The notes beneath the pieces are model-generated. The model was given only the letters and a program-made list of their open reading frames with translations, had not been told where the DNA came from and did not search any database. Shown piece by piece: positions 1-23,427 of a stretch of DNA of 64,000 nt. Position numbers and translations under genes: made by a program. This DNA is from Melittangium boletus DSM 14713 (lineage in GTDB: Bacteria > Myxococcota > Myxococcia > Myxococcales > Myxococcaceae), in the NCBI RefSeq assembly GCF_002305855.1, contig NZ_CP022163.1, positions 7,003,765-7,067,764 of the forward strand, written 5' to 3'. Numbering within the stretch: the first letter of the stretch is position 1; every line of letters starts with the position of its first letter.

Positions 1-3000
1 GGTCGTACACCGAGCAGTCGAAGGCGGCCGCGGCCGGGGTGAGGAAGTCCGCGGCCAGGCTGATCGAGAGCCACTGCCGGGTGTCCTCGGTGTCCCGTGA
101 GGGGTCTAGCGCGCGGTCGCCGACTGGCGGGTCCGCGACCGGGGCGAGCCAGCGGGGCAGGTCCGCCAGCACGTCGGGGTGATGGGCGTGCTGAAGCAGG
201 GCCCGCGCCCACTGCGGGAACGGCGTGCCGGTGGCGGGCAGCACCGGGGCGCGGCCGTCGCGGACCGCCGCCCAGGCCGTGTGCAGGTCGTCGAGCAGGA
301 TGCGCCAGGACACGCCGTCCACGCACAGGTGGTGCGCGGTCAGCTTGAGCCGATCCTCGCACCAGGTGGCGTGCAGGACGCGGCCGAGGGCCAGGTTGAT
401 GGGCCGGTCCAGCTCAACGGTGACGTGCTCCAGCACCCGCAGCGCCCACACACCCTTCACTTCGGACAGTGCGAGGCGCAGCATGCCGTGGTGGTCGACC
501 AGCGCCTGGACCACGGCGCGCACCTGCTCGGCCGTGCACCCGGCCGGGGTGCGCACGGTCATCGACTGGACGAACCGGTTGTCCGGCGCGCCCCGGCCGC
601 GCAGCCAGTGCATGACCGGGGTGAGCGGCACGGTCGGGTCGTCGGGGTCGCCGAGAGCCAGGCTCCGGCCGCGCGCGGCGGGCAGCGCGAGGCCCTTGGC
701 CAGGGCGGTGACGGTCGGGGCGCGGAAGACGTCGGAGGTGCTGACGGCCAGCCCGGCGCGCTGCGCGGCGGCGGCGAGCTGAATGGCCCGGATGCTGTCG
801 CCACCGAGCTTGAAGAAGTCCCCGTCCACGGGCACCTCGGCCCGGCCGAGCACCTGCGCGAACAGCTTCGCGAGGGTCCGCTCGGCGGCCGAGCCGGTGG
901 CGCGCACCGGCTCGGGCGCGGGGGCAGCGGGGTCGGGCAGGGCGGCGCGGTCGAGTTTCCCGTTGCGGGTCAACGGCAGCGCGGCCAACCCGACCACGGC
1001 CGAGGGCACCAGGAACGGCGGCAGCCGCTCACCGAGCCGCTCCAGCAGCCCGTCCGGGACCTCGCCGACGACGTAGGAGACCAGGCGGCCCTCGCGCAGC
1101 ACGGTCGCGGCCTGCCGCACCCCCGGCTGGGCCAGCAGCGCGGCGTCCACCTCACCCAGCTCCACCCGAAAGCCGCGCAGCTTGACCTGGCCGTCGGCGC
1201 GCCCGGCGAACTCCAGCTGCCCGTCGGCGTTCCAGCGGGCCAGGTCGCCGGTGCGGTAGACGCGGGCACCGGGCGGACCGGACGGGTCGGGCAGGAAGCG
1301 CTCGGCGGTGGCCGCCGGCCGGTTCAGGTAGCCCAGGGCCACGCCCGCGCCACCGATGTACACCTCGCCGATGGTGCCGAGCGGCACGGGGCGCAGGGCC
1401 GCGTCGAGCAGGAGCACCCGCATGCCGTCCAGGGGACGGCCGATGGGGACCACGTCGGTGACCGGGCCCGCGGGGTAGCGGGTGGCGAAGACGGTGGTCT
1501 CGGTCGGGCCGTAGCCGTTGACGACGGTGAGCCCGGGCAGTGCTTCCCGCACGGCGCGCACGGCGGCGGGGGAGACTACGTCACCGCCGGTCCACACCTG
1601 GCGCAGCCCGGTAAGGCAGCGCGGGTCCTGGGTGGCGATCGCGTTGAACAGCCCGGCGGTGAGCCACATGCCGGTGACCCCGGCGGTGGCGATGGTGCGG
1701 GCCAGCTCGCCGGGGTCGAGCCTGCCGGGCGGGGCGAGCACGATCTCGCCGCCGGTGAGCAGCGGGACCCACAGCTCCAGGTTGATCGCGTCGAAGGCCT
1801 GCGGAGAGTGCAGCAGCACCCGCTCGGCGCCGCCCTCGGTCCACCAGCGGTCGGCGGCGAGGTCGACCAGGTTGGCGTGCGTGACACCGACGCCCTTGGG
1901 CGTGCCGGTGGAGCCCGAGGTGAACATGACGCAGGCCAGGTCGTCCCCGCCGACCTCCGGGCACGCGGCGCCCGGGCCGGTGCCGTTGACGGTCAGCACG
2001 CGCAGACCGGGGGCCGTCGCGTCCGCCTGGTCGGTGAGCAGCAGCCGGGCCCCGGAGTCGGCGAGCACGACCGCACGCCGGGGCGGCGGGTCCTCGGCGT
2101 TCAGGGGCACGTAGGCCGCGCCGGACTTGAGCACGGCGAGCACGGCGACCACCAGGTCCACCGAGCGCTGCAGCAGCATCGCGACGTTGTTGCCGGGCCC
2201 GGCACCCGCCCCGGCGAGCCGGGCGGCCAGGGCGGTGGCCCGCGCGTCCAGCTCGCGGTAGGTCAGCCTCCGCCCGGTCGCCGGGCAGTGCACCGCACCG
2301 GCCTCCGGTTGTTGGCGGACCCGCGCGGCGAAGGCCGAGGTCACCGTGCTGGCTCGCGCCGCCTGTGCGGCCCCGGCTCCCAGGTCGGTCAGGTGCGCGC
2401 GCTCGGCGGCCGTGGTGGGTTGGACGTCGACCAGGGGCGTGTCCGGGGTGGCCTCGACCAACTGCCACAGCACGTGCTCGAACCGCTCGCCCAGCTCCCG
2501 CAGCCGCTTGGGGGAGCACGTGGTGGGGTTGGCGTCGAAGTCCAGGCGCAGCCTGCCGTCACCCCGGTCGTAGGCCACCACGGACAGGTCCTCCGACGGC
2601 GGGGCCTGGAGGTTGTGCACGGTCACCGTCGCCGAGCCGAAGCGCAGCACGTGGTCGAACCGCTGGATGTTGAGCACCGGTCCGAAGAACTTCCGCCCGT
2701 CCTCTGGCAGCCCCAGCTCGCGCCGCAGGCGTTCGCCCCGGTAGCGCTGCCGCGACCGGATGGCGCTCAGCTGCGCGGACACCTCCTGGAGCAGGCCGCC
2801 CACGGTGCCCACCAGGTTGACGCGGATGCGCAGGGGCACCACGTTGGCCGTCATGGCGGGCACGGCCACCTCCGCCGCGCGGCCGGAGACGGGCAGGCTG
2901 AGCAGCAGGTCCGGCTGCCCGGTGACGGCATGCACGTGCACGGCGGTGGCCGCGGTGACCACGCGGGACCACCGCGTCCCCAACCGCTCGGCGCCCTGCC

Positions 3001-3704
3001 GCAGCCGGGCGAACTCCCCTTCCTCCAGCACTCGGGTCCACCGCACCGAGGCCTCGGCGGCGGGCGCGGCGCGCGACCCGACCACCACCGGCTCGGGCCG
3101 GTCGGCCAGCCGTGCGAGCCACCACTCGCGGTCCTCGGCCAGTGCGGCCGAGTCGCGGTACGCCTGCTCGGCCGAGGTCACCTCGGCCAGGGCGGCCCAC
3201 CCGGTTCCGGGCACGACGCGCCCTTCCCGGAGGCACTCGTAGATCTCGGCCACGCGCCGCACGAGCAGCGCCATGCCCGCGCCGTCGAGGGCGATGTGGT
3301 GCACCCGCAGGAACACCCACTGCCGCTCCTCGGCCAGCCGCAGCACGGCACCGAGGAACAGCTCCTCGCCCGCCGCCGCGAGGCGCTCCGCCATCCACGC
3401 CCGCGCCGAGGCGATGGGATCGGGGGCCTCCCGGAAGTCCACGGTGGTGACCCGGGGTTCGGCGGAGTCCAGGACCCGTTGCCGGGGAAGGGAATCGGCC
3501 GTCTCCTCGAAGACCACCCGGACCGCCTCGCACTCCGCGGCGGCCCGCGTGAGCGCTGCGGTCAGCAGGTCGGTCCGGACGGTCCCGCACAGGTCCAGAT
3601 ACTCAGCCCACTGGTAGGAGCCGGGACGGCTGTACCCGGCGCGCTCGGCGAGCCACACACCGGTCTGGGCATCGGACAGTTCGAGTCTAGCGCTCTGGTC
3701 GACC
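1..3704 (-). CDS. Non-ribosomal peptide synthetase, 5' part (starter condensation domain then adenylation domain; continues beyond window start)
   Basis: Minus-strand frame is open from ~3704 to position 1. The translation starts with a C-domain ('ELSDAQTGVWLAE...VHHIALDGAGM' = HHxxxDG motif). It is followed by an A-domain ('LTYRELDARATALAARL', 'FTSGSTGTPKGVGVTHANLV', 'LTGGEIVLAPPG'). Candidate GTG start with GGTGAGGA upstream at ~3704. The ORF track omits it because it runs off the window edge. Confidence 0.8.
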
Positions 3705-3807
3705 ACGTGGGAGGTGTCCTCACCAGCTTGTGTGGGTCAGCGGGGCGCTCTTCTAGCACGGAATGTTTTGGCAAAAAGCAAAGTTCGAGTTTTCCCGTTT
3801 TAGCGCA

Positions 3808-4160
3808 CTATTGGAGGAGGGCGTCGGGCCAGCCCGCTGGACAAGCGGGGTCTCCGTGAGAAGGAGAGCAAGCCATTGGATGAGGCCACCTGCCTTGGGG
3901 ACCCTGCCTCTGCTCCTGGACAGCTCCCACCACCGGGCTGTTGATATACCCCCGGTCGATGTACAGCTCGTCCATTCCAATGCCTTGTCGCCTTATGTCT
4001 TTCTGGAGCTCCGGAGTGGCCTCCGCCTCGGGCCGGTTGGCTGGAGTGACGGTGCAGGCGACTAACGGGCCCATCTCCACCTCCGCGGCGATGTGCTGCT
4101 TGAACCCATTGAAGCGCTTGCTCTGGCTCTTGCGGCCGTGACGCATTTCGCTGTCTTCCA
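3808..4160 (-). pseudogene. Transposase remnant (IS1182/IS5-superfamily-like internal fragment)
   Basis: Minus-frame peptide 'MRHGRKSQSKRFNGFKQHIAAEVEMGPLVACTVTPANRPEAEATPELQKDIRRQGIGMDELYIDRGYINSPVV' resembles the conserved core of IS1182-type transposases ('MRHGRKSSSKRFDGYK...TPANxxD'). No intact N- or C-terminus. Local GC is lower. Sits exactly at the junction between the NRPS and the YD-repeat genes. Confidence 0.5.
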
Positions 4161-4342
4161 CCGACACTCGCTTGTCAGGTGCTACCGCCTGGTGGAACTG
4201 TCCGGGGTCCTTGGAGAGGGCGATCCCGAGAGCGGAAGTTGCGCGAGCCTTCGAGAAGAGCCGGCAGCGAGGCTCTCGATCTTCCGGAGCAGAGCGCGAT
4301 CCACCTCCCCACCTGGGTGAGGGTTCCAGTCGTTCAGGGCTG

Positions 4343-5662
4343 CTAGTCACACTCGTACTTGAAGTCGCGGCGCACCGGACCGTCGTCCAGGCCCGGCGTG
4401 CCCGAGTACTCCTCGTGCACGAGCCGTCCCTTGTCATCGCGCTCGTGGGTGCGCCGGGCATCCACGACGCCGTCCTGGTCGCTGTCCCACTCGTCGAGCC
4501 AGACGATCTTCGTGCCACACAGGTATGTGAGCCGGCGGGTGGTGGTCAGGTACGTGGTCACCAAAGGGTATTCGATGCCGGGGCCCGAGAGCTGGGTGTA
4601 GACCTTGCCAAGCCGCTCGAGCAGCAGCAGGCCCGAGGCGTCGTAATAGAGGGTCCGCACGAACTCGTGGCTGCGGTAATAGCCGCCGTATTTTTCCCAG
4701 CTTCGGAACACCCGGCGGGCCGCGTCGTGGGAGGTGACGGTGTGTCGGACATGCTCGAAGCCCTCCTCCTGTTCGTCCACGAGGTTGCCCCGGTCGTCGT
4801 ACAGGTTCGTGAAGCTCATGTGGTGGTCGTCGGTCCACGCGTTCTGTTTCACGTGGCCATTGGGCCAGTAGGTAAACGTCTCGCAGCGGGCGACTCTCAG
4901 GTCGCAGTCCGGCCGACTGTCGATCTCCACCAACTGACCCACCGCGTTGTAGTGGTAGACGATCGGGCCGTCCTGTCCGTTCGAGGTCTGGCGCTCGATG
5001 CGTTCGAGACGGCCCTTCGCGTCGCGGATGTACTGGTAGGAGCGGGGAAGGGTGGGCGCGTCGAACGTCTCGGTCCGCCGCGCGAGCCGGCCCGCGTCGT
5101 CATACGCCCACTCGATTTGGTCCCAGGAGCCCTCGGGGAACTCGAGGCGGCGGAGCGTTTCGTGGCCGTTCTTCCAGGTGTGGAACTCGGTCTCTTGCAG
5201 CGTGCCATCCGGCCCGTAGCGGCGCCGCTCCAGCAGGCGGCTGTCGGCGTCGTAGCGGGCCACCTCGCGGTCGCCGTTGGCGAAGACCGAGGTGCCCTCG
5301 CACGCCGTGGCGCGCACGGGCGCCACCTTCCCCTTCCAGGGCACACAGGCCACGGGCTTGAGGGTGGGGGAACCCTCGAGGCCCGCGCTCACGGGGGGAA
5401 CCTCGCCCGGCGACGGCGGGGGCTGCACCACGGGCACCGTGGGCTCCTGGGTGGGCGTCTCGGGCTGCGTCGAGGGCTCACCCGGAGGAGGCGCCTCACC
5501 CGTGGGGGGCGTGGACGCGGGCGGCTGGGCGGGCACGGGCGTGTCCGGGAGGGGCGCCGGGGCTTCGGGTGTGGGCCCTGGCGCGGGCTCCTCGCGCGTC
5601 GCACCACACCCCACGAGCATCGCGCACACGCTCCATCCCATCAGCCTCCAGTGCTTGCGCAT
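4343..5662 (-). CDS. YD-repeat (RHS-repeat-like) lipoprotein, paralog A
   Basis: Start ATG at ~5662 with GGAGGGGAG RBS. Lipoprotein signal 'MRKHWRLMGWSVCAMLVGCGA', then a Pro-rich linker. Multiple 'YDxxGRL'-type YD repeats ('ARYDADSRLLERRRYGPDGTL', 'YDDAGRLARR', 'YDDRGNLVDE'). The C-terminal ~60 aa are nearly identical to the divergently encoded paralog. Confidence 0.7.
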   Translation of the reverse strand: MRKHWRLMGWSVCAMLVGCGATREEPAPGPTPEAPAPLPDTPVPAQPPASTPPTGEAPPPGEPSTQPETPTQEPTVPVVQPPPSPGEVPPVSAGLEGSPTLKPVACVPWKGKVAPVRATACEGTSVFANGDREVARYDADSRLLERRRYGPDGTLQETEFHTWKNGHETLRRLEFPEGSWDQIEWAYDDAGRLARRTETFDAPTLPRSYQYIRDAKGRLERIERQTSNGQDGPIVYHYNAVGQLVEIDSRPDCDLRVARCETFTYWPNGHVKQNAWTDDHHMSFTNLYDDRGNLVDEQEEGFEHVRHTVTSHDAARRVFRSWEKYGGYYRSHEFVRTLYYDASGLLLLERLGKVYTQLSGPGIEYPLVTTYLTTTRRLTYLCGTKIVWLDEWDSDQDGVVDARRTHERDDKGRLVHEEYSGTPGLDDGPVRRDFKYECD

Positions 5663-5891
5663 TCCCATCTCCCCTCCGGTTGGTTGGCCGGCAAGGTGTG
5701 CACGTGGAGTGTGGGCGCCCATAGCCCCCGGTCGCTCGCTTGGGTACATGCCGAACGCTTGGCGACGGAAACGACATGAGGCGCGGACTCCACTCTACAC
5801 GCCTCCCATTCGCCCGATGCGTTGACTCCGGGTGAAGTCTTGTAGGGCGATGGGTCCATGAACACCTTCCCGCGACAACAGGGGAGGGAGC

Positions 5892-7157
5892 ATGGGACGG
5901 GGGCGGAGCGCATGGATGCTGGCCATGTGTCTGGTGGTGAGCGCATGTGGAAGCACGTCACCATCTCCCGCCGAGCCCACCGAGTCGGGGGAGCGGACGG
6001 GGCTGGGTCCGGGCGACGACCCGGCTGGCGGTGGCACGGTGTCCGGACTGGAGGGTGAGCCGTCCCTGCCGCCGCGTGCGTGCATCCCCTGGACGCGCCC
6101 GACGCCCCCGGTGCGAGCCACGGCGTGCGCGTCCTTCTCCGTGTTCGCGGATGGCTCCTCCGTGCGCGCCCGGTATGACGCCGACAGCCGTCCCCTCGAG
6201 GTGCGCGAGTTCTCGAGCGACGGCACGCTCCACACGGTGGAGACGCGTGTCTGGAGCGAGGGACTCGAGCGGCTGTACCGCCGGGAGGAGCTCGCGTTCG
6301 GCTTGTCCACCCAATCGGAGTGGACTTATGACGGCCGGCGGCTGCTGCGGCGCGTGGACTCGTTCTCGCACGACCCCCCGAAGACGTATGACTACGTCTA
6401 CGACGCCCAGGGCCGTATCACGCGCGTCGTGCGCCAGTGGTCCGGGGAGTCGGTCACGAGTCTCTACACCTACGACGTGCAAGGGCGCCTGGTGCGCATC
6501 GCCGACGAGCAGAGCGATTGGCTGTGCGGCTCGGGGGACAGCCGATGCGCGAGCCTGTCCTATTGGCCCAATGGTGTGCTCAAGCGCCACGAGTGGGAGA
6601 CCGGGAAGATGAACTTCGAGGAGGAGTTCGATGCGGCGGGCCGGCTCGTCGGGTCGCTCGCGCAAGACCCGGACCACCTGAGGCGCCGCCAGCTGGGCTA
6701 CGACGAGGCGGGGCGTTTGCGCCGGGAGTGGCGCTTGCACTCCTGGTACGTCTGGGACGCCACCTCCGTCACGCGCACCGTCTACGATCCCGCGGGGCGG
6801 CGCGAGCGGTTCGCGGAGGAACTGGCGGACTATGGCGAATGTGGGGCCCGTTTGCCGGATTGCGAGCCGGAGCGGAGCTCCGTGCACGTCACCCGCCGGA
6901 CCACCTTTTTCTGTGGCACGGAGATTGTCGCGCTCGACGAGTGGGACGGCGACGAGGACGGCGTGGTGGATGCCACGCGTACGCACGAGCGCGATGACGC
7001 GGGCCGGCTGGTGCACGAGGTGTACTCGGGCACGCCGGGACTGGATGACGGGCCCGTGCTGCGCGACTTCACCTATGAGTGCGCCCCGTCCGGCGTCGCT
7101 CAGACGCAGGGCGATGCCGGTGGTGAAGCCCGCGCCCGCGCTGCACAGGTGAGGTGA
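5892..7157 (+). CDS. YD-repeat (RHS-repeat-like) lipoprotein, paralog B
   Basis: ATG with GGGGAGGGAG RBS. Lipoprotein signal 'MLAMCLVVSACGS'. YD repeats ('ARYDADSRPLEVREFSSDGTL', 'YDAQGRITRV', 'YDVQGRLVRI', 'YDEAGRLRRE'). C-terminus 'WDGDEDGVVDATRTHERDDAGRLVHEVYSGTPGLDDGPVLRDFTYEC' matches paralog A. Confidence 0.7.
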   Translation: MGRGRSAWMLAMCLVVSACGSTSPSPAEPTESGERTGLGPGDDPAGGGTVSGLEGEPSLPPRACIPWTRPTPPVRATACASFSVFADGSSVRARYDADSRPLEVREFSSDGTLHTVETRVWSEGLERLYRREELAFGLSTQSEWTYDGRRLLRRVDSFSHDPPKTYDYVYDAQGRITRVVRQWSGESVTSLYTYDVQGRLVRIADEQSDWLCGSGDSRCASLSYWPNGVLKRHEWETGKMNFEEEFDAAGRLVGSLAQDPDHLRRRQLGYDEAGRLRREWRLHSWYVWDATSVTRTVYDPAGRRERFAEELADYGECGARLPDCEPERSSVHVTRRTTFFCGTEIVALDEWDGDEDGVVDATRTHERDDAGRLVHEVYSGTPGLDDGPVLRDFTYECAPSGVAQTQGDAGGEARARAAQVR

Positions 7158-7368
7158 TCCAAACCTCCCGTCTCCACACTTCACAACGCGCCGGGCGATT
7201 CTAAGGCACTCGGCGTTGCCGTGAGCGCGCACACATGCACGCCGTGGGATGGCGTACGGCCTCCACGCAACCTCCAGGGCACAGTTCTCCGCTAACGAGG
7301 AGGCGCGGATCGGCTTAGAGGACCAATCGGCGGGAACCAGGTTCACGAGGATGGAATGACCGAAGGCC

Positions 7369-8043
7369 TCATGCAGCTGGCCTGACCAGCCCGAGCTTCA
7401 AAAGGCTGTCCGAAGTGGCGACGACGGCGTCCTCGAAGGGCCGAGGCGACCAGCCCAGAAGCTTCTCTGCCTTTGCGCTGCTCGTCTCGCGCACCGACCC
7501 CAGGTGCGGCAGGACCACCTTCGCGGCCGGGTTGTGCAGTGCCGCAAGCCTCACGCGCCAATTGGGGAGCTCGCGCGTAGAGACGTGCGCGCCCAGCTTC
7601 CGCTTCAGTACCCGCGCCACGTCCGCGATGGAGTGGGTGCCCGGTGCCGCGGCGATGAAGCGCTCGCCCTTCGCCGCCGGGTGAGTCATCGCGCGTAGGT
7701 GCAGCTTCGCCACGTCGCGGACATCGACGTACGGCGAATAGACCTTCGGGCAGCCCGACATCGCGCCGCTCAGGAGCTGCTTGATGATTCCGATCGAGTG
7801 CGACGTGTCAGGCCCAAGCACCGGTCCCAGCACGCCAACGGGATTCACCGCGCTCAGTTCCAGTGCTCTGCCTTCACGCGCGAGGAAATCCCAGGCGGCG
7901 CGCTCCGACAGGGTCTTGGATCGCTGATAGAGCGGAACCCACGCCTCCTCACTGCTCCAGTCCGTCTCCAGATAAGGCCCACGTTTGGCGGTTGGAGTGG
8001 CGAGGCGGAGAAGCGTTACACCTGATTCTACAAAAGCGTGACG
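7369..8043 (-). pseudogene. NAD-dependent epimerase/dehydratase (SDR) family gene, N-terminally disrupted
   Basis: The C-terminal 159-aa ORF is clean. Extending upstream in frame gives '...PLYQRSKTLSERAAWDF...' (the catalytic YxxxK of SDRs). That frame hits a TAA at ~8045 with no Met and no Rossmann 'TGxxGxxG' segment. Rossmann-like remnants appear only in other frames at 8050-8400. Confidence 0.45.
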
Positions 8044-10884: not shown

Positions 10885-10929
10885 TGAAGCTCCGCCTCTT
10901 CCTTCTCTCCATGGACACTACCTCTCGTG

Positions 10930-11085
10930 TAGCCGACTTATGCGGTATGTCCACTAAAACGCCTCTCCCGCACTTCATGTGCTCCATGAGCCGTCCAAGA
11001 GCGGGACTCCTGCTGCTCCGTCGCACGCGACTCGCCAGCCGAGCAGCGAACACACAAAGTGCGGGAGAGCCACTAAAGCGGGGCA
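10930..11085. repeat. MITE-like element copy A (terminal inverted repeats CCGYTTTAGTGGCTCTCCCGCACTTT)
   Basis: Left arm 10933-10970 ('ctaaaacgcctctcccgcacttcatgtgctcc'). Right arm 11043-11070 ('acaaagtgcgggagagccactaaagcgg') is its reverse complement. Second copy at 57787-57967. Confidence 0.5.
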
Positions 11086-11108
11086 GGCTCACCCCGAGGT
11101 GCTACGTG

Positions 11109-12137
11109 ATGCGTTGTTCACTGGTGCTGCTCTGCTTGGCCCTGATGGGGTGTGGCGGCGCTGCTCCAAGCGTCCGTCATACGCCGGATGAGCAGAGGCG
11201 CTGTGTATATGTCCCGTCCCGTGACGAGGCGGCCGGAGCCTGGAATGAGACGGTGCCCTCCGCTCACGCGGGTGTGAACGTGGTGCTTGTCGCGGCGACG
11301 GCGGGGGCTTCGCCCGTGGCTCCCCCTGCCCCAAGTCCGGCTCCTGCCCTGGAATGGCTGTCGGGTGAGGGGTTGGGGAACGGCATTCCCCGGGGCGTGC
11401 TCCGGTTGGTGCCTGAAGGAGGCGCGGGCGCGGAGGTAGGGGCTGGCGGAGCCGCAGGGGAGACGGTGGTGGTGGGGGGAGCGTTCGTCGCAGCCGTTGG
11501 CAGTGGGCTGCTGGTCTGCCTGACGGCTCGTGCGGCCCTGGATGGGGAGAAGACCCCCATCGAGATTGCGGACGAGTATTACGGCACACACTTCGGAGAC
11601 GTGATGGGGTGGGTTCAAGGTCAATACCCGGCCCAGGTTCCTCCTCCTGGCGCAGCGCCCAGGTCGAAACCCGACGAGAGCACCGGCAAGAGGCTGGGGC
11701 GCATCTATGTCACCTACACAAAGCTCAATAAGATGACCCACCGCTACTACGCGGGGCGGACCAGCATGGTCGTCGATCTTGCTGTGTCCCTCGAATTTCA
11801 GGCCGCACTGGCGGTTTTCCTCCGAGACAGAAACCACCACCTGGACGAGAATGCTGAACCGGGTGGCGCCATGTTCGGCTTGGCGCAGACTGATCGATTT
11901 GATGTCGGCACCGGGGTTGACTATAGCCGTCGATACGACGACGTCGCTTACTGGCGGATTCGCGGGAGAGAGCAGCAGTTGATTGATTCCCTTGGAGGAG
12001 CCCACGCTGACACCGGAGCGCCTTATCGCACCGAGAACGCCGTACGCGGCGTGGCGAAAGAAAATCCACAAGGCAGAAGGTTCCACTCCGCCGCGACGGA
12101 GTTGTGGGGCCAACTTCACCCTTACACGGGATACTAG
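11109..12137 (+). CDS. Lipoprotein, candidate OME-delivered (SitA-like) polymorphic toxin; function of C-terminal domain unknown
   Basis: Start ATG 11109 (GTG 11106) preceded by GAGGTG, lying inside the right arm of the MITE-like element. Lipobox 'LLCLALMGCGG'. Ala/Gly/Pro-rich linker, then a globular C-terminal domain. Followed 3 nt later by a small low-GC ORF. Confidence 0.55.
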   Translation: MRCSLVLLCLALMGCGGAAPSVRHTPDEQRRCVYVPSRDEAAGAWNETVPSAHAGVNVVLVAATAGASPVAPPAPSPAPALEWLSGEGLGNGIPRGVLRLVPEGGAGAEVGAGGAAGETVVVGGAFVAAVGSGLLVCLTARAALDGEKTPIEIADEYYGTHFGDVMGWVQGQYPAQVPPPGAAPRSKPDESTGKRLGRIYVTYTKLNKMTHRYYAGRTSMVVDLAVSLEFQAALAVFLRDRNHHLDENAEPGGAMFGLAQTDRFDVGTGVDYSRRYDDVAYWRIRGREQQLIDSLGGAHADTGAPYRTENAVRGVAKENPQGRRFHSAATELWGQLHPYTGY

Positions 12138-12139
12138 GG

Positions 12140-12595
12140 ATGCCGCGAATCTACAAACCGGGCTCGTTCTTGAGAATCCCCCTTGCCGACGGCTCCTTCG
12201 GTTACGGCAGGGTGCTCAAACTGCCGCATGATGCCTATTACGATTACAGGACCGACACTCCAGATTCCGATCTGGAGCGGATTGCCTCCAAGCCTATCCT
12301 TTTCAAGATCATGGTTCGCCATATGGAGGAGAGGGCATGGGAGTTCATTGGGTGGAAAAAGCTGGAGGAGCAGTTTTCTCAACCGGTCGTCCAGTTCATG
12401 CAGGACATTGGGAACCTCCGCGACTGCACGATCTTCGACACCGTCGGCAATTCGAGGCGCGCGGAGCCCCAGGAGTGTGTGGGACTTGAGCGCTCGGCTG
12501 TCTGGGAAGAGGTGGGAGTCGAGCAACGCCTGCTCGACTCCTTCATGGGGCGGCCCAACGATGACGTGGAGCGCGTGAAGGTGCGCCTGAAATAG
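12140..12595 (+). CDS. Small cytoplasmic protein, candidate immunity protein (Imm-like)
   Basis: 152 aa, no signal peptide, N-terminus 'MPRIYKPGSFLRIPLADGSFGYGRVL'. GC ~55% versus ~69% background. Tightly coupled to the upstream lipoprotein. Confidence 0.5.
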   Translation: MPRIYKPGSFLRIPLADGSFGYGRVLKLPHDAYYDYRTDTPDSDLERIASKPILFKIMVRHMEERAWEFIGWKKLEEQFSQPVVQFMQDIGNLRDCTIFDTVGNSRRAEPQECVGLERSAVWEEVGVEQRLLDSFMGRPNDDVERVKVRLK

Positions 12596-12734: not shown

Positions 12735-14084
12735 CTAGCCGATGCGGCCGATGGTGGCGCCCCGCTCGTAGACGGTGATGGGGCCATCCTCGGAGACGTT
12801 GATGGCCACGCCCCGGAAGCTCGCCCGCCACGCCGCGAGCGCCCGGGCTCCGGGCATGCTGGGCTCGCGCAGCCCCAGCCGGGCGATCTCCCTGGGGCTC
12901 GAAATCATGCAGGCGATGTCCAGCACGCTGCCGTCCTTGTCGAGCACCACGGCGCCGTCCGTGGCGGCCGCCGCGGTGATGACCTGGCGCTGCGCCCAGA
13001 CGGAGATGTTCTGGCCCCTCAGGCTGCGGCGCAGGTGGGAGTTGGCCGCGAGCGCGTGTCCATGGTCGGGGATGAAGTCCGTCAGATCCTCGCGCGAGTC
13101 GAGCAGGCAGAAGAGGGCCCCCGTGCGCTCGAAGGACAGGTCGATGGCGGCCCGGAGCACGCCGATGACCACGTCCTCGCGGAAGCGCAGGGACAGCCGC
13201 TCGTGCAGGGCCTCGTAGTCGAGCACGCGCCAGTGGCCGTGGGTCTTCTGGAAGACGGAGCCCTTGCCACTGAGGATGAACAGGTCTCCCTGCGGCGAGG
13301 CCACGAGCGCCACGTCATGCGCGGAGTGGCCGAGCACGGCCTGCACGGGGACGAGCGTTTCGTGCGGGGCGTAGCGCAGGGCGGCGTCGTTGCGGTCCAC
13401 CTCGGCGAGCGAGATGAAGCCGATGATGTTGCCGGAGTGCATGCTGCCGAGCAGCGCCACGCGGCGGCCATCCACCACGGTGCGGATCCACTTCTCGCGC
13501 AGGAGCGCGTTCTCGATGGAGATGCCGCCCGGCAGGGGGATGAACTTGTTCTGCAGCTTCTGCACGAGCTTGGGCGCCTTGCGCGCGACGATGAGGCAGT
13601 GGCGCACGGCGCGGCCCTCGTAGGTGAGGGCCATGGAGTCCTCCACGGCGCGGATCCAGTTGGACATCTGGTGCGGCCGGTAGTTGAGGAAGCGCGCCAC
13701 GGCGCGGCGCAGGCGCGTCTGCTCGAGCGAGGCCCAGTGCTCGTTGAGCGGCAGGGCGGCGGAGACGTGGGTCAGGTCGTCGTTGAAGACGCGGCAGAAG
13801 GCTCGCGCGAAGTGGCTGTCGCTCGTGCGCACCGGGCGCCACAGGTCGATGAGGAGCCCCGCCTGGGGCGTGGGTTGATCGAAGTAGAGCAGGGCGGCGA
13901 GCCGTGTCTCGTCGAGCGGCACCACCTTGGGCTTGAGCGCCGCGCGAGGGCCCAGCGCCTCGATCTGCGCGGCGAGGTCCGCCGCCGACAGCGAGGACGT
14001 GGTGCTGCCCGGGAAGATGTCCTTGAAGGCATTGGCCAGCGAGGCGAGTGCATCGACGATGACCAGGGGCCTGCGCGTTCGCAT
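12735..14084 (-). CDS. DAC (diadenylate cyclase)-like domain protein with ~300-aa unknown N-terminal region; RHR motif degenerate
   Basis: C-terminal ~150 aa align to the DisA_N/CdaA DAC fold ('TDGAVVLDKDGSVLDIACMI', 'GARALAAWRAS...VAINVSEDGPITVYERG' versus CdaA 'GTRHRAA...VVSEETG'). The DGA motif is kept, but RHR is replaced by ARA. Confidence 0.65.
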   Translation of the reverse strand: MRTRRPLVIVDALASLANAFKDIFPGSTTSSLSAADLAAQIEALGPRAALKPKVVPLDETRLAALLYFDQPTPQAGLLIDLWRPVRTSDSHFARAFCRVFNDDLTHVSAALPLNEHWASLEQTRLRRAVARFLNYRPHQMSNWIRAVEDSMALTYEGRAVRHCLIVARKAPKLVQKLQNKFIPLPGGISIENALLREKWIRTVVDGRRVALLGSMHSGNIIGFISLAEVDRNDAALRYAPHETLVPVQAVLGHSAHDVALVASPQGDLFILSGKGSVFQKTHGHWRVLDYEALHERLSLRFREDVVIGVLRAAIDLSFERTGALFCLLDSREDLTDFIPDHGHALAANSHLRRSLRGQNISVWAQRQVITAAAATDGAVVLDKDGSVLDIACMISSPREIARLGLREPSMPGARALAAWRASFRGVAINVSEDGPITVYERGATIGRIG

Positions 14085-14150: not shown

Positions 14151-14888
14151 TCAGGCGCCGCGGGTGGCCGCGTCCACGCGGTCCAGGTACCGGGAAAGCC
14201 GGGAGCGCGCGGAGATCTGATCGCGCTGCCAGGGCGTGATGTCCTGGCGCAGGCTGAAGAGCTGGGCGAACAGGCCCAGGTCGGCGATGGAGAAAGCGCC
14301 CAGCCAGAAGCCCTCCTCGGGGGCGCGGGCCTCCAGCGCGTCGAGCTGGGCCTGGAAGCGCCGCCAACACGCCTCCGGGCCCGCGCGCCAGACATCCCGT
14401 GCCACGACGGCGCTCACGATTTTCTTGCGCATCCGACCGGAGATGAGGCCCCGCAGGGGCGCGGGAATGGGCTTGAAGATCCGGTCGCGGAACCCGGCCC
14501 AGTTGCGATCGTCGGCCCAGCGCGAGGAGATGAAGAAGCCCACCAGCGACGTGTCCGCGAATTCCTCCCACAGGACGGCCTCGGCGGCGAGCTTCGCGTC
14601 CTGGGTCCCGTGGAAGGTGCGCCCCGTGAGGGACTGGAGCCTCAAGAGGATGTCGGTGGAGTCTCCCACGGCTTCGTTGTCCCCGATGAGGAGCACGGGC
14701 GCCTGTCCGGTGGAGTAGTACTTCTTGAAGCTGCCGGGCATGCCGTGGCGGCGCTCATAGGGCAGGCCCAGGTACTTCAGCGCGCGGTGCACCTTCACGC
14801 AGAACGGCGAGTAGCTTTCCAGGCCAGGGATGTCGGTTTCTCCGAGCTCGCACAGCACGAGCTTGGGCAGGGACGAGGGGGTGGTCAT
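14151..14888 (-). CDS. Glutathione S-transferase family protein
   Basis: Thioredoxin-like GST N-domain ('KLVLCELGETDIPGLESYSPFCVKV...PVLLIG') and a helical C-domain. Confidence 0.75.
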   Translation of the reverse strand: MTTPSSLPKLVLCELGETDIPGLESYSPFCVKVHRALKYLGLPYERRHGMPGSFKKYYSTGQAPVLLIGDNEAVGDSTDILLRLQSLTGRTFHGTQDAKLAAEAVLWEEFADTSLVGFFISSRWADDRNWAGFRDRIFKPIPAPLRGLISGRMRKKIVSAVVARDVWRAGPEACWRRFQAQLDALEARAPEEGFWLGAFSIADLGLFAQLFSLRQDITPWQRDQISARSRLSRYLDRVDAATRGA

Positions 14889-14977
14889 GGTGGCTCTTTC
14901 AATCGAATCGCCTCGGGGCGTCAAGCCACGCCTGGGCCTGATACCCTCGCGGCCCCCCTTCCTCCCTGGGAGTTCAC

Positions 14978-16132
14978 GTGACGGAGATAGAGAGCCTGGC
15001 GGCGTTCGAACAACACCTGACGGGTGGCAAAAGCCTCTCCAACGTCATCCTCCAGGGGTTGGACCTGATGGAGCAGGGGGAGGTGTTGCTGCGCGCGGAC
15101 CTCTCGGGCTCCGTCTTCCTGGGCTGCCTGCTGGACGCCAGGATCTTGCAGGAGGTGATCGGGCGGGGCGCCATGGTGTTCCCGCCGTTCTCGGGGCTGC
15201 CCTACTCGCCCTACCGGGGGGGCCTCTACACGCCCGAGGAGCTATACGCGGGCTTCGACCCCGCGCATCCCGAGAGCTACGCGGACACCCCGGACGCCCG
15301 CATCTACGCGCACTGGAACTCGCGAGGAGGGCCCAATCCGCCGTCGATCCTCGAGACCCTGGCGCAGCGGCTCCATGACCACGCCATCAGCGACGCCCTG
15401 GAGGAAGCCCTCATCGACCAGGGCCAGCCACGCCGGGTGGTGGCCATCATGGGCGGCCACTCCATGCTCCGAGGACAGGCGGACTACCGCGCGGTGGCGG
15501 AGCTGGCCCGCGCCCTGGCGCGTCTGGGCTTCTTCCTGGTGAGCGGCGGAGGCCCCGGCGCCATGGAGGCCACGCACCTGGGCGCGTGGTTCGCCGGACG
15601 GAGCGACGGCGAGCTGGACGCGGCGCTCGAGGTGTTGGCGCTGGCGCCGGGCTACAAGCACCGCGAGTGGCTGTCCCGGGCCTTCGAGGTGCGCGCCACC
15701 TGGCCGCTACGGGACGAGGATCGAGCCATCAGCGACAGCCTGGGCATTCCGACCTGGCTCTACGGCCACGAGCCGCCCAACCCCTTCGCCACGCGCATCG
15801 CCAAGTACTTCGCCAACAGCGTGCGCGAGGAGGGCCTGCTCACCATCGCCCAGGGCGGGGTCGTCTACTCGCCGGGCAGCGCCGGCACCGTTCAGGAGGT
15901 GTTCCAGGACGCGTGCCAGAACCACTACAACACGGTGGGCGTCATCAGTCCGATGATCTTCCTGGGCCGCGAGTTCTGGACGAAAACGAGGCCCGTGTAC
16001 CCGTTGCTGGAACACCTCGCCCAGGGGCACGACTACTCACGCTATCTGCTGCTCACGGACTCCCAGGAGGAGATCATCCAGGCGCTCGTGAAGTTCAACC
16101 AGGAGCGCGAGGCCCAGCGCGTCGCGGGTTGA
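14978..16132 (+). CDS. LOG-family Rossmann-fold protein (PpnN/YgdH-like nucleotide 5'-monophosphate nucleosidase family)
   Basis: 'VVAIMGGHSM...GFFLVSGGGPGAMEATHLGA' is the LOG/TIGR00730 'GGGxGxMEA' signature. Has N- and C-terminal extensions. GTG start. Confidence 0.7.
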   Translation: MTEIESLAAFEQHLTGGKSLSNVILQGLDLMEQGEVLLRADLSGSVFLGCLLDARILQEVIGRGAMVFPPFSGLPYSPYRGGLYTPEELYAGFDPAHPESYADTPDARIYAHWNSRGGPNPPSILETLAQRLHDHAISDALEEALIDQGQPRRVVAIMGGHSMLRGQADYRAVAELARALARLGFFLVSGGGPGAMEATHLGAWFAGRSDGELDAALEVLALAPGYKHREWLSRAFEVRATWPLRDEDRAISDSLGIPTWLYGHEPPNPFATRIAKYFANSVREEGLLTIAQGGVVYSPGSAGTVQEVFQDACQNHYNTVGVISPMIFLGREFWTKTRPVYPLLEHLAQGHDYSRYLLLTDSQEEIIQALVKFNQEREAQRVAG

Positions 16133-19269: not shown

Positions 19270-20886
19270 TCATCCCCTCATCAGGTCGGCCCAATTCAAG
19301 TCGAACCGGGCGAGGTACTTGCGCAGCCGATCCGCGTCATTGACGCTCTTCTTCTGGGCCCGGGATTGGGCGAACAGGAGTCGTCCCGCGTCGGAGAGCG
19401 AGCGGGCCTGACGGCACACGGTGAGGACTTCCGCGAGCTGCGCCCGGTCGAACCGATCGAGCGCTTCCGCCCGCTCGGCTCCCAGCACCTCCGTCACCAC
19501 GTCCTCCGCCGGGTGGCGCCGCGTGCCGGGCGTCCACGCGGCGAGCAGCCGCTCCCACTCCTCGTCCACGCCCTCGCGGGTGATGCGTCCTCCCGGCGCG
19601 AGCGTGGCCATGCGCAGCACCGCCGCGTTGAGGTCCCGGAAGTTGCCGCTCCAGCGCGCCTCGGGCGAGGTGGCGAAGCGCAGGAAGTGCTCCTGGGCCT
19701 CCTTGTTCATCGTCACCCGCGTGTCCAGTGCCTGCGAGGCCTGATCCAGCTCGTAGAGCAGGTTGGGGAGGATGTCCTCGGGCCGCTCGCGCAGGGGCGG
19801 CAGGCGGAAGGTCCACAGGTTGATGCGCGCGAGCAGATCCTCCCGGAAGCGTCCGCCCTCCACCTCGGCCAGCAGGTCGCGGTTGGTGCCCGCGAGGAGC
19901 TGGAAGTCGCTCTCCACCTCCTTGTCCGAGCCCACGGGCAGGAAGCGTTTGTCCTCGAGCGCCCGGAGGAGCATGGCCTGCTCGTCCGCGCCGAGCTCGC
20001 CGATCTCATCGAGGAACAACAATCCACCGTGTGCCTGCCGCAGCAGCCCCGGCCGGTCCGCCACCGCACCGGTGAACGCGCCCTTCACGTGGCCGAAGAG
20101 GGCGGACATCGCCCCGTCCCCACGCAGGGTGGCGCAGTTGACGTCCACGAACGGGCCGCTCACGTGCCGCCGGGTCTTCTTGAGCTGGTAGATGCGCTTG
20201 GCGAGCTGGGACTTGCCCGCCCCCGTGGGCCCCATCAGGAGGAGGGGCGCGCGGGAGCTCGTGGCCACCTGTTCGATCCGCTCGATGAGCCGGTTGAAGG
20301 CCGCGTTCCTCGTGTCGATGCCCGCCTTGAGGAAGGACAGGCCCTCGCGCTGCTCCTGCTGGAAGCGGCTCGCCAGCGTGTCGTACTGGGACAGGTCCAG
20401 GTCGATGAGGGCATGCACGCCGGGGCCTCCCTGATCCCTTCCCCCATGCGAGGGCGACGTCTGCACGAGCCGGGCGGGGATGTGGCGGCTCTCCACCAGG
20501 AGGAAGAGGCAGATCTGCGTGATGTGCGTCCCGGTGGTGATGTGGACGAGGTAGTCCTCCTGCTCGGGCTGGAAGGGGTAGGCCTTCGCGTAGTCGAGCA
20601 GCGCGCCGTAGACCTCCTCCAGGTCCCACGGGTTGCGGATGTCCACGGGGGTGGGGCGCACGCGCGTTTCCGGGGACACCTGGGCGATGTCCGCCGTCAC
20701 CGTCTGGGCCAGGTCCGCCTGCGCCGGGGGGTGGAGCAGTTCCAGGCGGTGCACCACCAGATCCTCCTGCTGGCACAGTCCCACGGTGGGCCGCCACCGC
20801 TCCCACCGCTTCGGAGTCCTCCCCGTGTCCAGGGTGGTGCCCAGCATCCCGATCACCACCGTCTCGCGCGCCCGTGTCTTCGCCAT
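19270..20886 (-). CDS. rtcR: Sigma-54-dependent transcriptional regulator RtcR (CARF-like N-domain + AAA+ + HTH)
   Basis: AAA+ sigma-54 activator motifs ('LLMGPTGAGKSQLAKRIY', 'GAFTGA', 'GLLFLDEIGEL', 'RFREDLLARINLWTFRLPPLRERPEDI'). Divergent from rtcBA. Confidence 0.85.
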   Translation of the reverse strand: MAKTRARETVVIGMLGTTLDTGRTPKRWERWRPTVGLCQQEDLVVHRLELLHPPAQADLAQTVTADIAQVSPETRVRPTPVDIRNPWDLEEVYGALLDYAKAYPFQPEQEDYLVHITTGTHITQICLFLLVESRHIPARLVQTSPSHGGRDQGGPGVHALIDLDLSQYDTLASRFQQEQREGLSFLKAGIDTRNAAFNRLIERIEQVATSSRAPLLLMGPTGAGKSQLAKRIYQLKKTRRHVSGPFVDVNCATLRGDGAMSALFGHVKGAFTGAVADRPGLLRQAHGGLLFLDEIGELGADEQAMLLRALEDKRFLPVGSDKEVESDFQLLAGTNRDLLAEVEGGRFREDLLARINLWTFRLPPLRERPEDILPNLLYELDQASQALDTRVTMNKEAQEHFLRFATSPEARWSGNFRDLNAAVLRMATLAPGGRITREGVDEEWERLLAAWTPGTRRHPAEDVVTEVLGAERAEALDRFDRAQLAEVLTVCRQARSLSDAGRLLFAQSRAQKKSVNDADRLRKYLARFDLNWADLMRG

Positions 20887-20888
20887 AC

Positions 20889-20921
20889 GGATAGGAATTT
20901 ATCCCAGAGGATAGGAAATCG
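20889..20921. promoter_or_regulatory. Candidate RtcR upstream activating sequence: palindrome GGATAGGAATTTATCC plus repeated GGATAGGAAAT half
   Basis: 20889-20904 is GGATA-N6-TATCC inverted repeat. 20909-20919 repeats GGATAGGAAAT. ~60 bp upstream of the sigma-54 promoter. Confidence 0.4.
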
Positions 20922-20955
20922 GGCGCGGAAAGACGCTCCCCCTGGGGAGAAGCGT

Positions 20956-20971
20956 TGGCACGCGCCCTGCT
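20956..20971 (+). promoter_or_regulatory. Sigma-54 (-24/-12) promoter for rtcBA
   Basis: TGGCACgcgccCTGCT matches TGGCAC-N5-TTGCW (GG at -24, GC at -12). ~55 bp upstream of the rtcB ATG. Confidence 0.6.
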
Positions 20972-21025
20972 CTACCCCTCCCCGTGCCCGGCGGGACCGG
21001 GCGGACACTTCCGAGGGAGCAGGCC

Positions 21026-22261
21026 ATGAAGACCCAGCGCGATTACGAAGTCCTGACGAACGAGGCGGGTGGGGTGCCCATCAAGGCGTGGACGGTGGGG
21101 GTGCCGTTCGAGGACGAGGCCAAGAAGCAGCTCCGGGCCATGGCGACCCTGCCCTTCGTCCACAAGTGGGTGGCGGCGATGCCGGACGTGCACCGGGGCT
21201 TCGGTGCGACGGTGGGGAGCGTGGTGGCGACCGCGGGCGCGGTGATTCCCGCCGCGGTGGGCGTGGACATCGGCTGCGGGATGATCGCCGTGCGCACCAC
21301 GCTGCGCGCGGAGCAGTTGCCGGACTCGCTCGCCGGGGTGCGCTCGGCCATCGAGCGCACGGTGCCTCATGGCCGGACGGATAACGGCGGCCGCAACGAC
21401 AAGGGCGCCTGGCGCGAGGCCCCCGCTGCCCACCAGGAGGCCTGGGCCCGGCTGAAGCCCGGCTATGACGCCATCCTCGAGAAGCACCCGCGCCTGGGCC
21501 GTGGCCCGGACCTGGGTCACCTCGGGACGCTCGGGACGGGAAACCACTTCATCGAGGTGTGCCTGGATGAGGCCGGCCACGTGTGGGTGATGTTGCACAG
21601 TGGTTCGCGCGGTGTGGGCAACCGCATCGGAAGCCACTTCATCGAGCTGGCGAAGGAGGAGATGAGCCGCTTCTTCATCCACCTGCCGGAGCGGGATCTG
21701 GCGTACCTGCCCGAGGGGACGGTGCACTTCCAGGACTACCTGCACGCGGTGAGCTGGGCGCAGGACTACGCGGCCACCAATCGCGAGCTGATGATGCGCT
21801 CGGCGGTGGAGGCGTTGAAGGCGAGCGGGGAGCTGCCGGAGTTCTCGCTCACCGACGCGGCGGTGAACTGCCACCACAACTACGTGTCGCGCGAGCACCA
21901 CTACGGAAAGAACGTGCTCGTGACGCGCAAGGGGGCGGTGCGGGCGCGGGAAGGGGACCTGGGAATCATCCCCGGCAGCATGGGGGCGCGCTCGTACATC
22001 GTGCGCGGAAAGGGAAACCCGGAGTCCTTCCATTCGTGCAGCCACGGCGCGGGCCGGGTGATGTCGCGCGAGGCCGCCAAGCGGCACTTCTCGCTGGAGG
22101 ACCACGCCCGGGCGACGGCGGGCATCGAGTGCCGCAAGGACGCGGACGTCATCGACGAGACGCCCGGGGCCTACAAGCCCATCGATGCGGTGATGGCGGC
22201 GCAGGCGGGGCTGGTCGACATCGTTCATACCCTGCGCCAGGTGGTGTGCGTGAAGGGGTGA
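21026..22261 (+). CDS. rtcB: RNA-splicing ligase RtcB
   Basis: 'DIGCGM', 'GTGNHFIE', 'MLHSGSRGVGNRIGSHF', 'NCHHNY', 'HSCSHGAGR'. ATG 21026 with GGGAG RBS. Confidence 0.9.
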   Translation: MKTQRDYEVLTNEAGGVPIKAWTVGVPFEDEAKKQLRAMATLPFVHKWVAAMPDVHRGFGATVGSVVATAGAVIPAAVGVDIGCGMIAVRTTLRAEQLPDSLAGVRSAIERTVPHGRTDNGGRNDKGAWREAPAAHQEAWARLKPGYDAILEKHPRLGRGPDLGHLGTLGTGNHFIEVCLDEAGHVWVMLHSGSRGVGNRIGSHFIELAKEEMSRFFIHLPERDLAYLPEGTVHFQDYLHAVSWAQDYAATNRELMMRSAVEALKASGELPEFSLTDAAVNCHHNYVSREHHYGKNVLVTRKGAVRAREGDLGIIPGSMGARSYIVRGKGNPESFHSCSHGAGRVMSREAAKRHFSLEDHARATAGIECRKDADVIDETPGAYKPIDAVMAAQAGLVDIVHTLRQVVCVKG

Positions 22262-22410
22262 GCGGAGTGTGCCTGGAACCCTGACCCGGGAGGACGCCAT
22301 GAGGGGATAAAGACATCGAGACGCCCGCTCCCTCCGAGACTTCGGTCAGTAGGATGGGGGAGCGGGCGTCGCTACGTGCGGGCAAGGGGATTCACAGGGA
22401 GGGAGACGAC

Positions 22411-23427
22411 ATGGTTCGCATCGATGGTTCGAAGGGAGAGGGGGGCGGGCAGGTCCTGCGCACGTCGCTGGCGCTGTCGCTGGTGACGGGGACGCCGTTC
22501 CAGATGGAGAACATCCGCGCGGGGCGCTCCAAGCCGGGACTGTTGCGCCAGCACCTGACGTCGGTGAAGGCGGCGGCGGCCGTGGGCGGGGCGGAGGTGG
22601 AGGGCGCGGAGCTGCATTCCCGGACGCTGACGTTCCGGCCCCGGAGCGTGAAGCCGGGGGACTACCACTTCGCGGTGGGCACGGCGGGGAGCGCCACGCT
22701 GGTGTTGCAGACGGTGCTGCCGGCGCTCCTGAGCGCGAGCGGGCCGTCCACGCTGGTGCTGGAGGGCGGGACGCACAACCCGGCGGCGCCGCCGTTCGAC
22801 TTCCTGACGAAGGCGTACCTGCCGCTGGTGCGGAAGATGGGGCCGGTGGTGGAGGCGTCGCTGGAGCGGCCCGGGTTCTTTCCCGCGGGGGGAGGGAAGT
22901 TCCGCGTGAGTGTGCGGCCCGCGCCGCTCGAGCCCCTGCACCTGTTGGAGCGGGGGAAGGTGGTGCGCCGGCTGGCCACGGCGATGGTGGCGCAGGTGCC
23001 GTTCGACGTGGCTCAGCGGGAGCTGACGACGGTGGGGCGCACGCTCGGGTGGAGCGCGGAGGAGCGCCGGGTGGAGGAGGTGAAGCGCTCGGCGGGACCG
23101 GGAAACGTATTGTCGCTGGAGGTGGAGAGCGAGCACGTCACCGAGGTGTTCACGGGCTTCGGGGAGCGGGGTGTGCGGGCGGAGGCGGTCGCCGAGGCGG
23201 TGGCGGAGGAGGCCCGGGTCTACCTGGAGGCCGAGGTGCCCGTGGGCCCGCACCTGTGTGATCAGCTGTTGCTCCTGCTGGCCCTGGCCCGGGGAGGCTC
23301 GTTCCGGACGCTGCCCCTCGAGGGACATGCGCTCACCCAGATGGAGACGTTCGCGCACTTCACCGATGTGCGGGTCACCGAGACCCCCATCGCCCCCCGG
23401 GTGAGGGAAATCGTGGTGCGCGGTTGA
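22411..23427 (+). CDS. rtcA: RNA 3'-terminal phosphate cyclase RtcA
   Basis: 'IDGSKGEGGGQVLRTSLALSLVTGTPF...AVGTAGSATLVLQTVLPAL...HLCDQLLL' is typical of RtcA. The listed ORF begins earlier, at a spurious in-frame ATG. Confidence 0.85.
   Translation: MVRIDGSKGEGGGQVLRTSLALSLVTGTPFQMENIRAGRSKPGLLRQHLTSVKAAAAVGGAEVEGAELHSRTLTFRPRSVKPGDYHFAVGTAGSATLVLQTVLPALLSASGPSTLVLEGGTHNPAAPPFDFLTKAYLPLVRKMGPVVEASLERPGFFPAGGGKFRVSVRPAPLEPLHLLERGKVVRRLATAMVAQVPFDVAQRELTTVGRTLGWSAEERRVEEVKRSAGPGNVLSLEVESEHVTEVFTGFGERGVRAEAVAEAVAEEARVYLEAEVPVGPHLCDQLLLLLALARGGSFRTLPLEGHALTQMETFAHFTDVRVTETPIAPRVREIVVRG

Follow-up and report, generated by a model that had tools for sequence, protein, structure and literature searches.

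Diadenylate cyclase (DAC) domains were long regarded as making only cyclic di-AMP (c-di-AMP), for housekeeping signaling, and canonical DACs form a head-to-head DAC pair between subunits. A census by Galperin from 2023 is said to cover related DAC architectures. According to two preprints of August 2026 (PMC13640721 and PMC13640738), minimal DACs take part in defense against phages and are able to produce cUMP-AMP; their PanS is not restricted to c-di-AMP, and one of the two flags larger CdaG-type DACs beside CBASS (the antiphage signaling system based on cyclic oligonucleotides) as an open frontier. CdaG (Galperin 2023, as described in the available part of PMC13640721) is a DACNG-DACNH-DAC protein of about 575 residues with a C-terminal helix bundle, and some DACs of this type adjoin CD-NTases and two-transmembrane (2TM)-beta effectors (PMC13640721). 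Here we analyze a DAC-like gene on the minus strand, at positions 12735 to 14084, of a 64,000-nucleotide stretch of Melittangium boletus DSM 14713 (contig NZ_CP022163.1; hereafter, the window), and we establish the fold, motifs, family size, selection, and genomic contexts of its product. The window provides a clear and conserved case of a related family, tandem-DAC proteins of about 450 residues, for which clustering at 50% gives no fewer than 1399 representatives.

Judged from its conserved residues, the protein could be a regulated, catalytic generator of a nucleotide signal within a DAC-derived family, a reading that we favor tentatively, as possible rather than probable. It centers on the C-terminal DAC domain (residues 299 to 449; 12738 to 13190), which has the DAC alpha/beta fold with a reduced motif set and at whose last strand the chain stops. 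The DGA motif (D376-G377-A378; 12951 to 12959) is kept in the translation, as the initial annotation of this gene had it. Its D and G are invariant in an alignment of 52 diverse members, which spans about 20 to 50% identity to the query, and the motif reads DGA in 85 of 116 family members and DGx in the remainder. The same annotation held that RHR was replaced by ARA. The motif is indeed altered, but that register is one residue out: in the family profile aligned to Listeria CdaA and 2fb5, GARALAA (G412 to A418; 12831 to 12851) is the counterpart of GTRHRAA. RHR thus becomes R-A-L, with the first Arg kept as R414, Ala in place of His, and Leu in place of the second Arg. The complete motif is found in none of the 116 full-length relatives, so the alteration is not confined to the window protein. 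In none of them does His follow the Arg, and none carries the GxRHRxA signature; the third RHR position is K or R in about 36 (the "SRTKAA," or R-T-K, branch) and uncharged elsewhere. Small residues, A413 and A417, flank R414. By the translation and the profile alignment, S431-E-D433-G434 (12783 to 12794) corresponds to S222-E-E224 of CdaA (the VSEE segment); in the 52 members, S431 and D433 never vary and G434 hardly does, and S-x-D-G is almost universal among the 116. We take CdaA E224, the residue aligned to D433, to be a metal ligand. The complete set of residues invariant in the 52 sequences is Y155, E156, W285, D376, G377, G412, A417, S422, G425, S431, and D433, and R414 is present in at least 90% of them.

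Several of these residues have been mutated in other DACs. The equivalents of D376 and R414 are D112 and R143 in DacM, D172 and R203 in Leptospira CdaA, and D68 and R105 in PanS; each is essential, and single mutants lost activity or had it strongly lowered. The Gly equivalent to G377 is required in DacM (G113), while the G73A variant of Mycobacterium tuberculosis DacA stayed active. S222 of Leptospira CdaA is predicted to coordinate ATP and a cation and was picked for mutagenesis. For the RHR motif, loss of activity in M. tuberculosis DacA has been demonstrated for the triple RHR-to-AAA mutant only. Because the residues essential in other DACs are kept, and because the His and the second Arg have been tested only as part of that triple mutant, we consider the C-terminal site to be reduced but, on its sequence, not obviously dead; it is probably competent to bind nucleotides and perhaps to join them. 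The initial proposal of a "non-catalytic or divergent DAC" therefore holds for divergence, which is a trait of the whole family and not a local lesion, whereas the loss of catalysis is not established, given that the key Asp, Gly, first Arg, and Ser are retained.

What lies in front of this domain? Residues 1 to 132 (13689 to 14084) form an alpha/beta domain with long helices that is probably GAF/Roadblock-like and would be a putative sensor or regulatory module. Residues 133 to 298 (13191 to 13688) adopt, by structure, a second, degenerate DAC fold. The protein is hence a predicted tandem-DAC-fold protein with its second DAC fold within residues 1 to 298, the stretch of about 300 residues in which no recognizable domain had been seen and which hides a cryptic one at the level of the fold. 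The middle domain contains the family-invariant pair Y155-E156 (13617 to 13622) and G283-x-W285 (13230 to 13238), of which W285 is invariant and G283 nearly so. D205-G206 (13467 to 13472) occupies the site equivalent to DGA and P240-H241 (13362 to 13367) that equivalent to RHR. A profile-profile self-comparison of the two copies places TYEG opposite SFER, VDGRRVALL opposite TDGAVVL, APH opposite GAR, and ASPQGDLFIL opposite VSEDGPITVY. This comparison reached only P = 0.01, and an earlier one with a wrong domain boundary gave no match.

A HMMER scan of 1.84 billion representatives returned 1399 proteins at an E-value of ≤1e−3, 691 at ≤1e−10, and 85 at ≤1e−30; the counts of 1399 and 691 are representatives at 50% clustering, and the metagenome scan for relatives used an 18-sequence alignment (A1). 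Most family members have 430 to 480 residues, and distant ones align over residues 190 to 447 only. The Pfam DAC model PF02457 is matched by 4 of the 18 members of A1, and more distant relatives reach its gathering score: the R-T-K branch passes this threshold and the window protein does not. No Pfam model beyond PF02457 matched any family member tested, and the profile of A1 gave only noise against the PDB. Overall, the family has a patchy distribution (Myxococcota, Sericytochromatia, Bacillota, and Bacteroidota), and so does its closer clade, which includes Archangium, Cystobacter, and Melittangium (86 to 99% identity), Sericytochromatia, Peptostreptococcaceae, Tepidibacter, and Hymenobacter, and the R-T-K branch alone exceeds 478 clusters at 90% identity (named examples are Methylibium and Phycisphaerae). 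A search of plasmids found one distant homolog, on a Bacillus megaplasmid, where a recombinase and an integrase are encoded nearby, as are HNH and NucS-like nucleases. A phage origin was considered and dropped, as no relatives were found among the IMG/VR or GenBank phages. Databases name the relatives "DisA nucleotide-binding domain protein" or "DAC domain-containing protein," and the former label gives no hint of an architecture that is distinct and includes a second, cryptic DAC fold.

Some relatives are encoded in or beside conflict systems. In five loci (L003, L004, and L007 to L009), 35 to 46 bp separate the gene of a nearest-outgroup member (51 to 53% identity) from a downstream, same-strand gene for a CBASS oligonucleotide cyclase, a Cap15-type 2TM effector gene is in convergent orientation, and the flanking genes vary between loci; the CBASS assignment has PADLOC E-values of 1e−102 and 4e−69. 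In L037 (32% identity), the DAC-like gene is the last of a tight operon that also encodes a 2TM-GGDEF protein, a CD-NTase, and a patatin. This operon (328 to 4336 of its locus) is headed by the 2TM-anchored GGDEF protein (PF00990, E = 5e−30) and combines three nucleotide-cyclase folds in four genes. In L030 and L045 (41% identity), the DAC-like gene is convergent with a patatin-CD-NTase pair. The CD-NTases of these three CBASS-linked cases share only 25 to 34% identity, and the order of the genes is not the same, so the three associations are independent. Two further members have multi-transmembrane neighbors. In L041, a SLATT_5 2TM protein is encoded 72 bp upstream (7018 to 7728), which PADLOC also matches to the SLATT of defense reverse transcriptases; in L046, which belongs to the R-T-K branch, an unclassified protein of 217 residues with four transmembrane segments is encoded 9 bp downstream (1554 to 2207). 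These proteins could be candidate effectors of two-gene systems, and no other synthetase is present in the DNA available around the two pairs. The reduced motif is common to all members with a labeled context: it is GARAQAA, GARSTAA, or GSRSTAA in those adjoining CBASS or SLATT genes and GSRTKAA in an example of the R-T-K type. Other loci contain transposases, Mrr, a Ppl-like ATPase, a zeta-toxin-like gene, or recombinases with HNH and NucS-like nucleases.

The gene in the window is genuine. The open reading frame runs from ATG to stop, as first annotated, and the product of 449 residues matches, at 100% identity, a Melittangium boletus protein listed in UniRef as "DAC domain-containing protein." It is a cytoplasmic protein in which no transmembrane or hydrophobic segment was found. 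The GC content at third codon positions (GC3) is 0.96 and matches that of the core genes around it, indicating native codon usage. Against ten intact orthologs, the ratio of nonsynonymous to synonymous substitution rates (dN/dS) is 0.05 to 0.26, or 0.17 to 0.26 for the Archangium and Cystobacter orthologs once the near-identical contig L027 is left out; with the same exclusion, the C-terminal DAC domain has values of 0.12 to 0.25. With a dN/dS of about 0.2 in each of the three domains, all are constrained, and the gene is under purifying selection. Of 13 Archangiaceae copies, 11 retain an uninterrupted reading frame, at 86 to 99% protein identity over three genera. Frameshifts are present in the orthologs of Archangium lansingense MIWBW (L019, 10001 to 11346) and Cystobacter fuscus NCWS (L020, 10001 to 11349), with one and four gap openings, respectively, relative to the window gene. 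Because both assemblies are single contigs and probably long-read, these frameshifts may be sequencing errors and not signs of pseudogenes. A scan for promoters and terminators around the DAC-like gene returned no sites.

In the Archangiaceae, the conserved frame around the gene is rtcR followed by the DAC-like gene, since Cystobacter, Archangium, and the window all have rtcR upstream. The window carries rtcR, which encodes a sigma-54 activator, with rtcB and rtcA at 19270 to 23427. We assume that the sensor domain of the regulator RtcR is of the CARF type. Between rtcR and the DAC-like gene downstream of it, the Cystobacter and Archangium loci have a gene for a 302-residue secreted protein in one case and for MatE in the other, and an EamA transporter gene follows the DAC-like gene there. 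L010 (Cystobacter, 2616 to 6784) and L011 (Archangium-like, 3502 to 6580) have rtcR and rtcA upstream, L010 also has rtcB, and in L011, rtcR, matE, and the DAC-like gene lie on one strand, spaced by 5 and 19 bp. The arrangement could reflect a functional link or mere synteny within one bacterial family. In Melittangium, sigma factor, CopA, SLOG, and glutathione S-transferase (GST) genes are inserted upstream, and a toxin/Imm26 cassette of low GC content is located downstream. The GST gene (14151 to 14924) is on the same strand, 66 bp upstream, and the SLOG/LOG-like gene (14978 to 16132, plus strand) is divergent from it; both had been noted in the initial annotation, and Pfam and NCBIfam agree. 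The LOG-like protein is not a typical LOG enzyme: it has an N-terminal extension of about 150 residues and matches SLOG cluster 4 at 27.3 bits (cut-off, 26.3) and TIGR00730 at 24 (cut-off, 96). The nucleotide-metabolism context once read into these neighbors is a lineage-specific gene order: GST, SLOG, and CopA are common only to the window and the 99%-identical metagenomic contig L027, and they are absent within 8 to 10 kb of the orthologs of 86 to 91% identity in the Archangium and Cystobacter loci. The GST/LOG context is thus incidental and Melittangium specific. On the other side of the gene, the region at 10911 to 12595 (plus strand) looks like a polymorphic toxin/immunity cassette. It contains a 408-residue open reading frame with a lipoprotein-like N terminus and no Pfam match, whose end runs into the beginning of an Imm26 immunity gene (12104 to 12595; PF15428, E = 4.5e−13). 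Its GC content is 58 to 61% and its GC3 0.74, versus ≥0.9 around it; this spot is variable, as the Imm26 gene of L027 lies about 7.3 kb farther from the DAC-like gene. An RHS-repeat protein is encoded at 5892 to 7157.

How might such a protein work? We hypothesize that the family plan of an N-terminal GAF/Roadblock-like module, a degenerate DAC fold, and a C-terminal DAC domain, in a cytoplasmic chain of about 450 residues, would place a working site under regulation. The C-terminal domain appears to keep the residues that contact the ribose, the phosphate, and probably a metal (D376, G377, R414, S431, and D433), with which it would bind nucleotide, transfer a nucleotidyl group, and make a second messenger that is not necessarily 3′3′-c-di-AMP. 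PanS, in which the residues flanking the Arg are likewise small (G104 and A108), makes cUMP-AMP besides c-di-AMP and is a precedent for product diversity. The two N-terminal domains would probably control the C-terminal one, and the degenerate DAC copy is a possible intramolecular partner or the allosteric half of a head-to-head pair. In some lineages, the family has been recruited into conflict systems, alongside CBASS CD-NTases with Cap15 or patatin, a SLATT 2TM protein, or a four-transmembrane protein. In the Archangiaceae, including the window, it is an orphan of the chromosome that is inherited vertically, located downstream of rtcR and lacking an adjacent effector.

A number of observations weigh against this. 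The window protein has no match in Pfam, NCBIfam, or PADLOC at an E-value of ≤1 or in PDB sequences at ≤10; the early assertion that its C-terminal 150 residues align convincingly to DACs is borne out by the structure and by the profiles of relatives and not by the single sequence. The internal duplication is read from structure, with a marginal sequence signal. The Archangiaceae clade is the most reduced of all, having Leu at the third motif position, no compensating Lys, and Asn at the site of K429, which is conserved elsewhere. The RHR-to-AAA mutant of M. tuberculosis DacA loses ATP binding along with activity, and two of these three residues are missing here. In DisA, DGA and RHR contact the product c-di-AMP, and the kept residues would suit a receptor as well as an enzyme. 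No CD-NTase, Cap15, patatin, SLATT, four-transmembrane partner, or receptor was found near the gene in the window or in any of the Archangiaceae loci; a CD-NTase with a Cap effector adjoins relatives of 32 to 53% identity but not the window gene, and an effector-type partner stands beside the family member in a minority of the sampled loci only. Moreover, three members of the R-T-K branch on long contigs sit among plain housekeeping genes, so the link to conflict systems is not family-wide. Finally, catalysis, the product, the role of the second DAC fold, and the signaling output are for every member our inferences.

Some of these points would also fit a different protein, one whose C-terminal DAC domain is non-catalytic and instead receives or buffers a cyclic dinucleotide, be it c-di-AMP from canonical DACs or a CBASS product. 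It would relay the signal through its N-terminal domains or through protein contact, for example, by regulating the neighboring CD-NTase or effector in the CBASS-linked relatives. We regard such a pseudo-enzyme as conceivable but doubtful. It would account for an RHR motif that is incomplete family-wide, with the His absent from 116 of 116 sequences, for the lost ATP binding and activity of the M. tuberculosis triple mutant, and, through the DisA contacts, for the retained D, G, and R as product-binding residues. Another, complete cyclase adjoins in three loci, and SLATT is named for its link to synthetases (SMODS) and to SLOG (Pfam), a domain that can bind a ligand, as in ThsA. However, the invariant D433 aligns to CdaA E224 and an invariant Ser occupies a site predicted to contact ATP and a cation; if E224 is a metal ligand, as we presume, such residues would not be expected for the binding of a finished cyclic dinucleotide. 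The R-T-K branch, with its basic third position and its passing of the Pfam DAC threshold, and the membrane-protein pairs of L041 and L046, with no second synthetase nearby in the available DNA, also speak against a mere receptor. At the other extreme, the family could consist of ordinary c-di-AMP synthases that form a head-to-head dimer of C-terminal DAC domains and make 3′3′-c-di-AMP for housekeeping, as DisA or CdaA do, though under another sensor module. This is unlikely in our view. The DAC fold with its D, G, first R, and S, the database names, the core-like, vertically inherited gene under purifying selection in the Archangiaceae, and the three housekeeping contexts of the R-T-K branch are all consistent with it, whereas GxRHRxA, regarded as defining for DACs, occurs in no member, the window protein stays under the Pfam threshold, and the patchy distribution and mobile or defense-type neighborhoods are unlike those of a core osmoregulatory enzyme.

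Two further explanations start from the window itself. That the gene is the decaying remnant of a former defense operon on its way to becoming a pseudogene is very improbable: it is an orphan whose relatives of 51 to 55% identity are CBASS linked, its clade has lost K429 and acquired the Leu at the third motif position, and two orthologs are frameshifted, but these two come from probable long-read, single-contig assemblies with possible sequencing errors, and the intact frame in the other 11 copies across three genera, the dN/dS of all three domains, and the GC3 argue for a maintained gene. A joint role of the protein in nucleotide metabolism with the neighboring GST and LOG/SLOG-like protein is scarcely credible. 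The GST gene is close and on the same strand, with the SLOG-like gene divergent from it, and SLOG domains are known from nucleotide-signaling conflict systems (Pfam names SLOG cluster 4 and SLATT); however, the SLOG match is marginal, the trio with CopA recurs only in L027, no LOG-family or GST gene is among the annotated neighbors of more distant relatives, and tblastn with the window GST and SLOG proteins found no match in the other relatives' loci searched. We therefore rejected the two as functional partners, not being conserved next to orthologs. The regulated, catalytic signal generator can be taken further, to a version that we consider improbable. The two DAC folds of one chain would pair head-to-head within it, asymmetrically and with just one competent site (D376, R414, S431, and D433), which would make a signal other than symmetric c-di-AMP, gated by the GAF-like module. 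It would be a second signal generator or a guard for membrane effectors in the CBASS and SLATT relatives, and the Archangiaceae orphan could supply or sense a ligand connected with RtcR.

Databases already label the relatives as DAC-domain proteins, and the August 2026 preprints, in their available parts, cover related architectures and CdaG-type genes beside CBASS. New here are the corrected motif register, the family-wide incomplete RHR, and the second DAC fold in a family of 450-residue proteins, together with the documentation of independent CBASS and SLATT links and of a GST/LOG context that is incidental. Whether catalytic or not, such a site would test how much of the RHR signature DACs need, and the product or ligand, once identified, could add a new nucleotide signal or receptor to CBASS- and SLATT-type systems.

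With the canonical DACs (DisA, CdaA/DacA, CdaS, and CdaM/DacM; PF02457), the family shares the DAC fold and DGA. Unlike them, it lacks the His and an intact RHR, has other regulatory modules and a second DAC fold in cis, and, in the case of the window protein, falls below the threshold of the Pfam model that they match. PanS (PanDA/Panoptoo) is likewise DAC derived, is encoded near CBASS operons, as are some relatives here, and has small residues flanking the catalytic Arg; however, it consists of a DAC domain of about 150 residues and is operonic with the 2TM-beta protein PanE, whereas the window protein has 449 residues in three domains and no 2TM-beta gene was found near its gene. The pairing of the L041 and L046 members with a small multi-transmembrane protein recalls the two-gene systems of SMODS/CD-NTase and SLATT/Cap15, in which the synthetase is a Pol-beta nucleotidyltransferase, unlike the DAC fold here; the window gene has no such partner. 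The closest parallel is CdaG, for which we rely on the available description. Its about 575 residues and C-terminal helix bundle differ from the about 450 residues (449 here) of a chain that ends with the DAC domain, and no member of either group has been characterized; compared by that description, our family could be CdaG itself or a sister family. In both, some members adjoin a CD-NTase and a 2TM-beta (Cap15-type) effector, which the window gene does not, and both, as far as that description goes, have a motif-less DAC-like domain before the DAC domain and a further N-terminal domain ahead of it.

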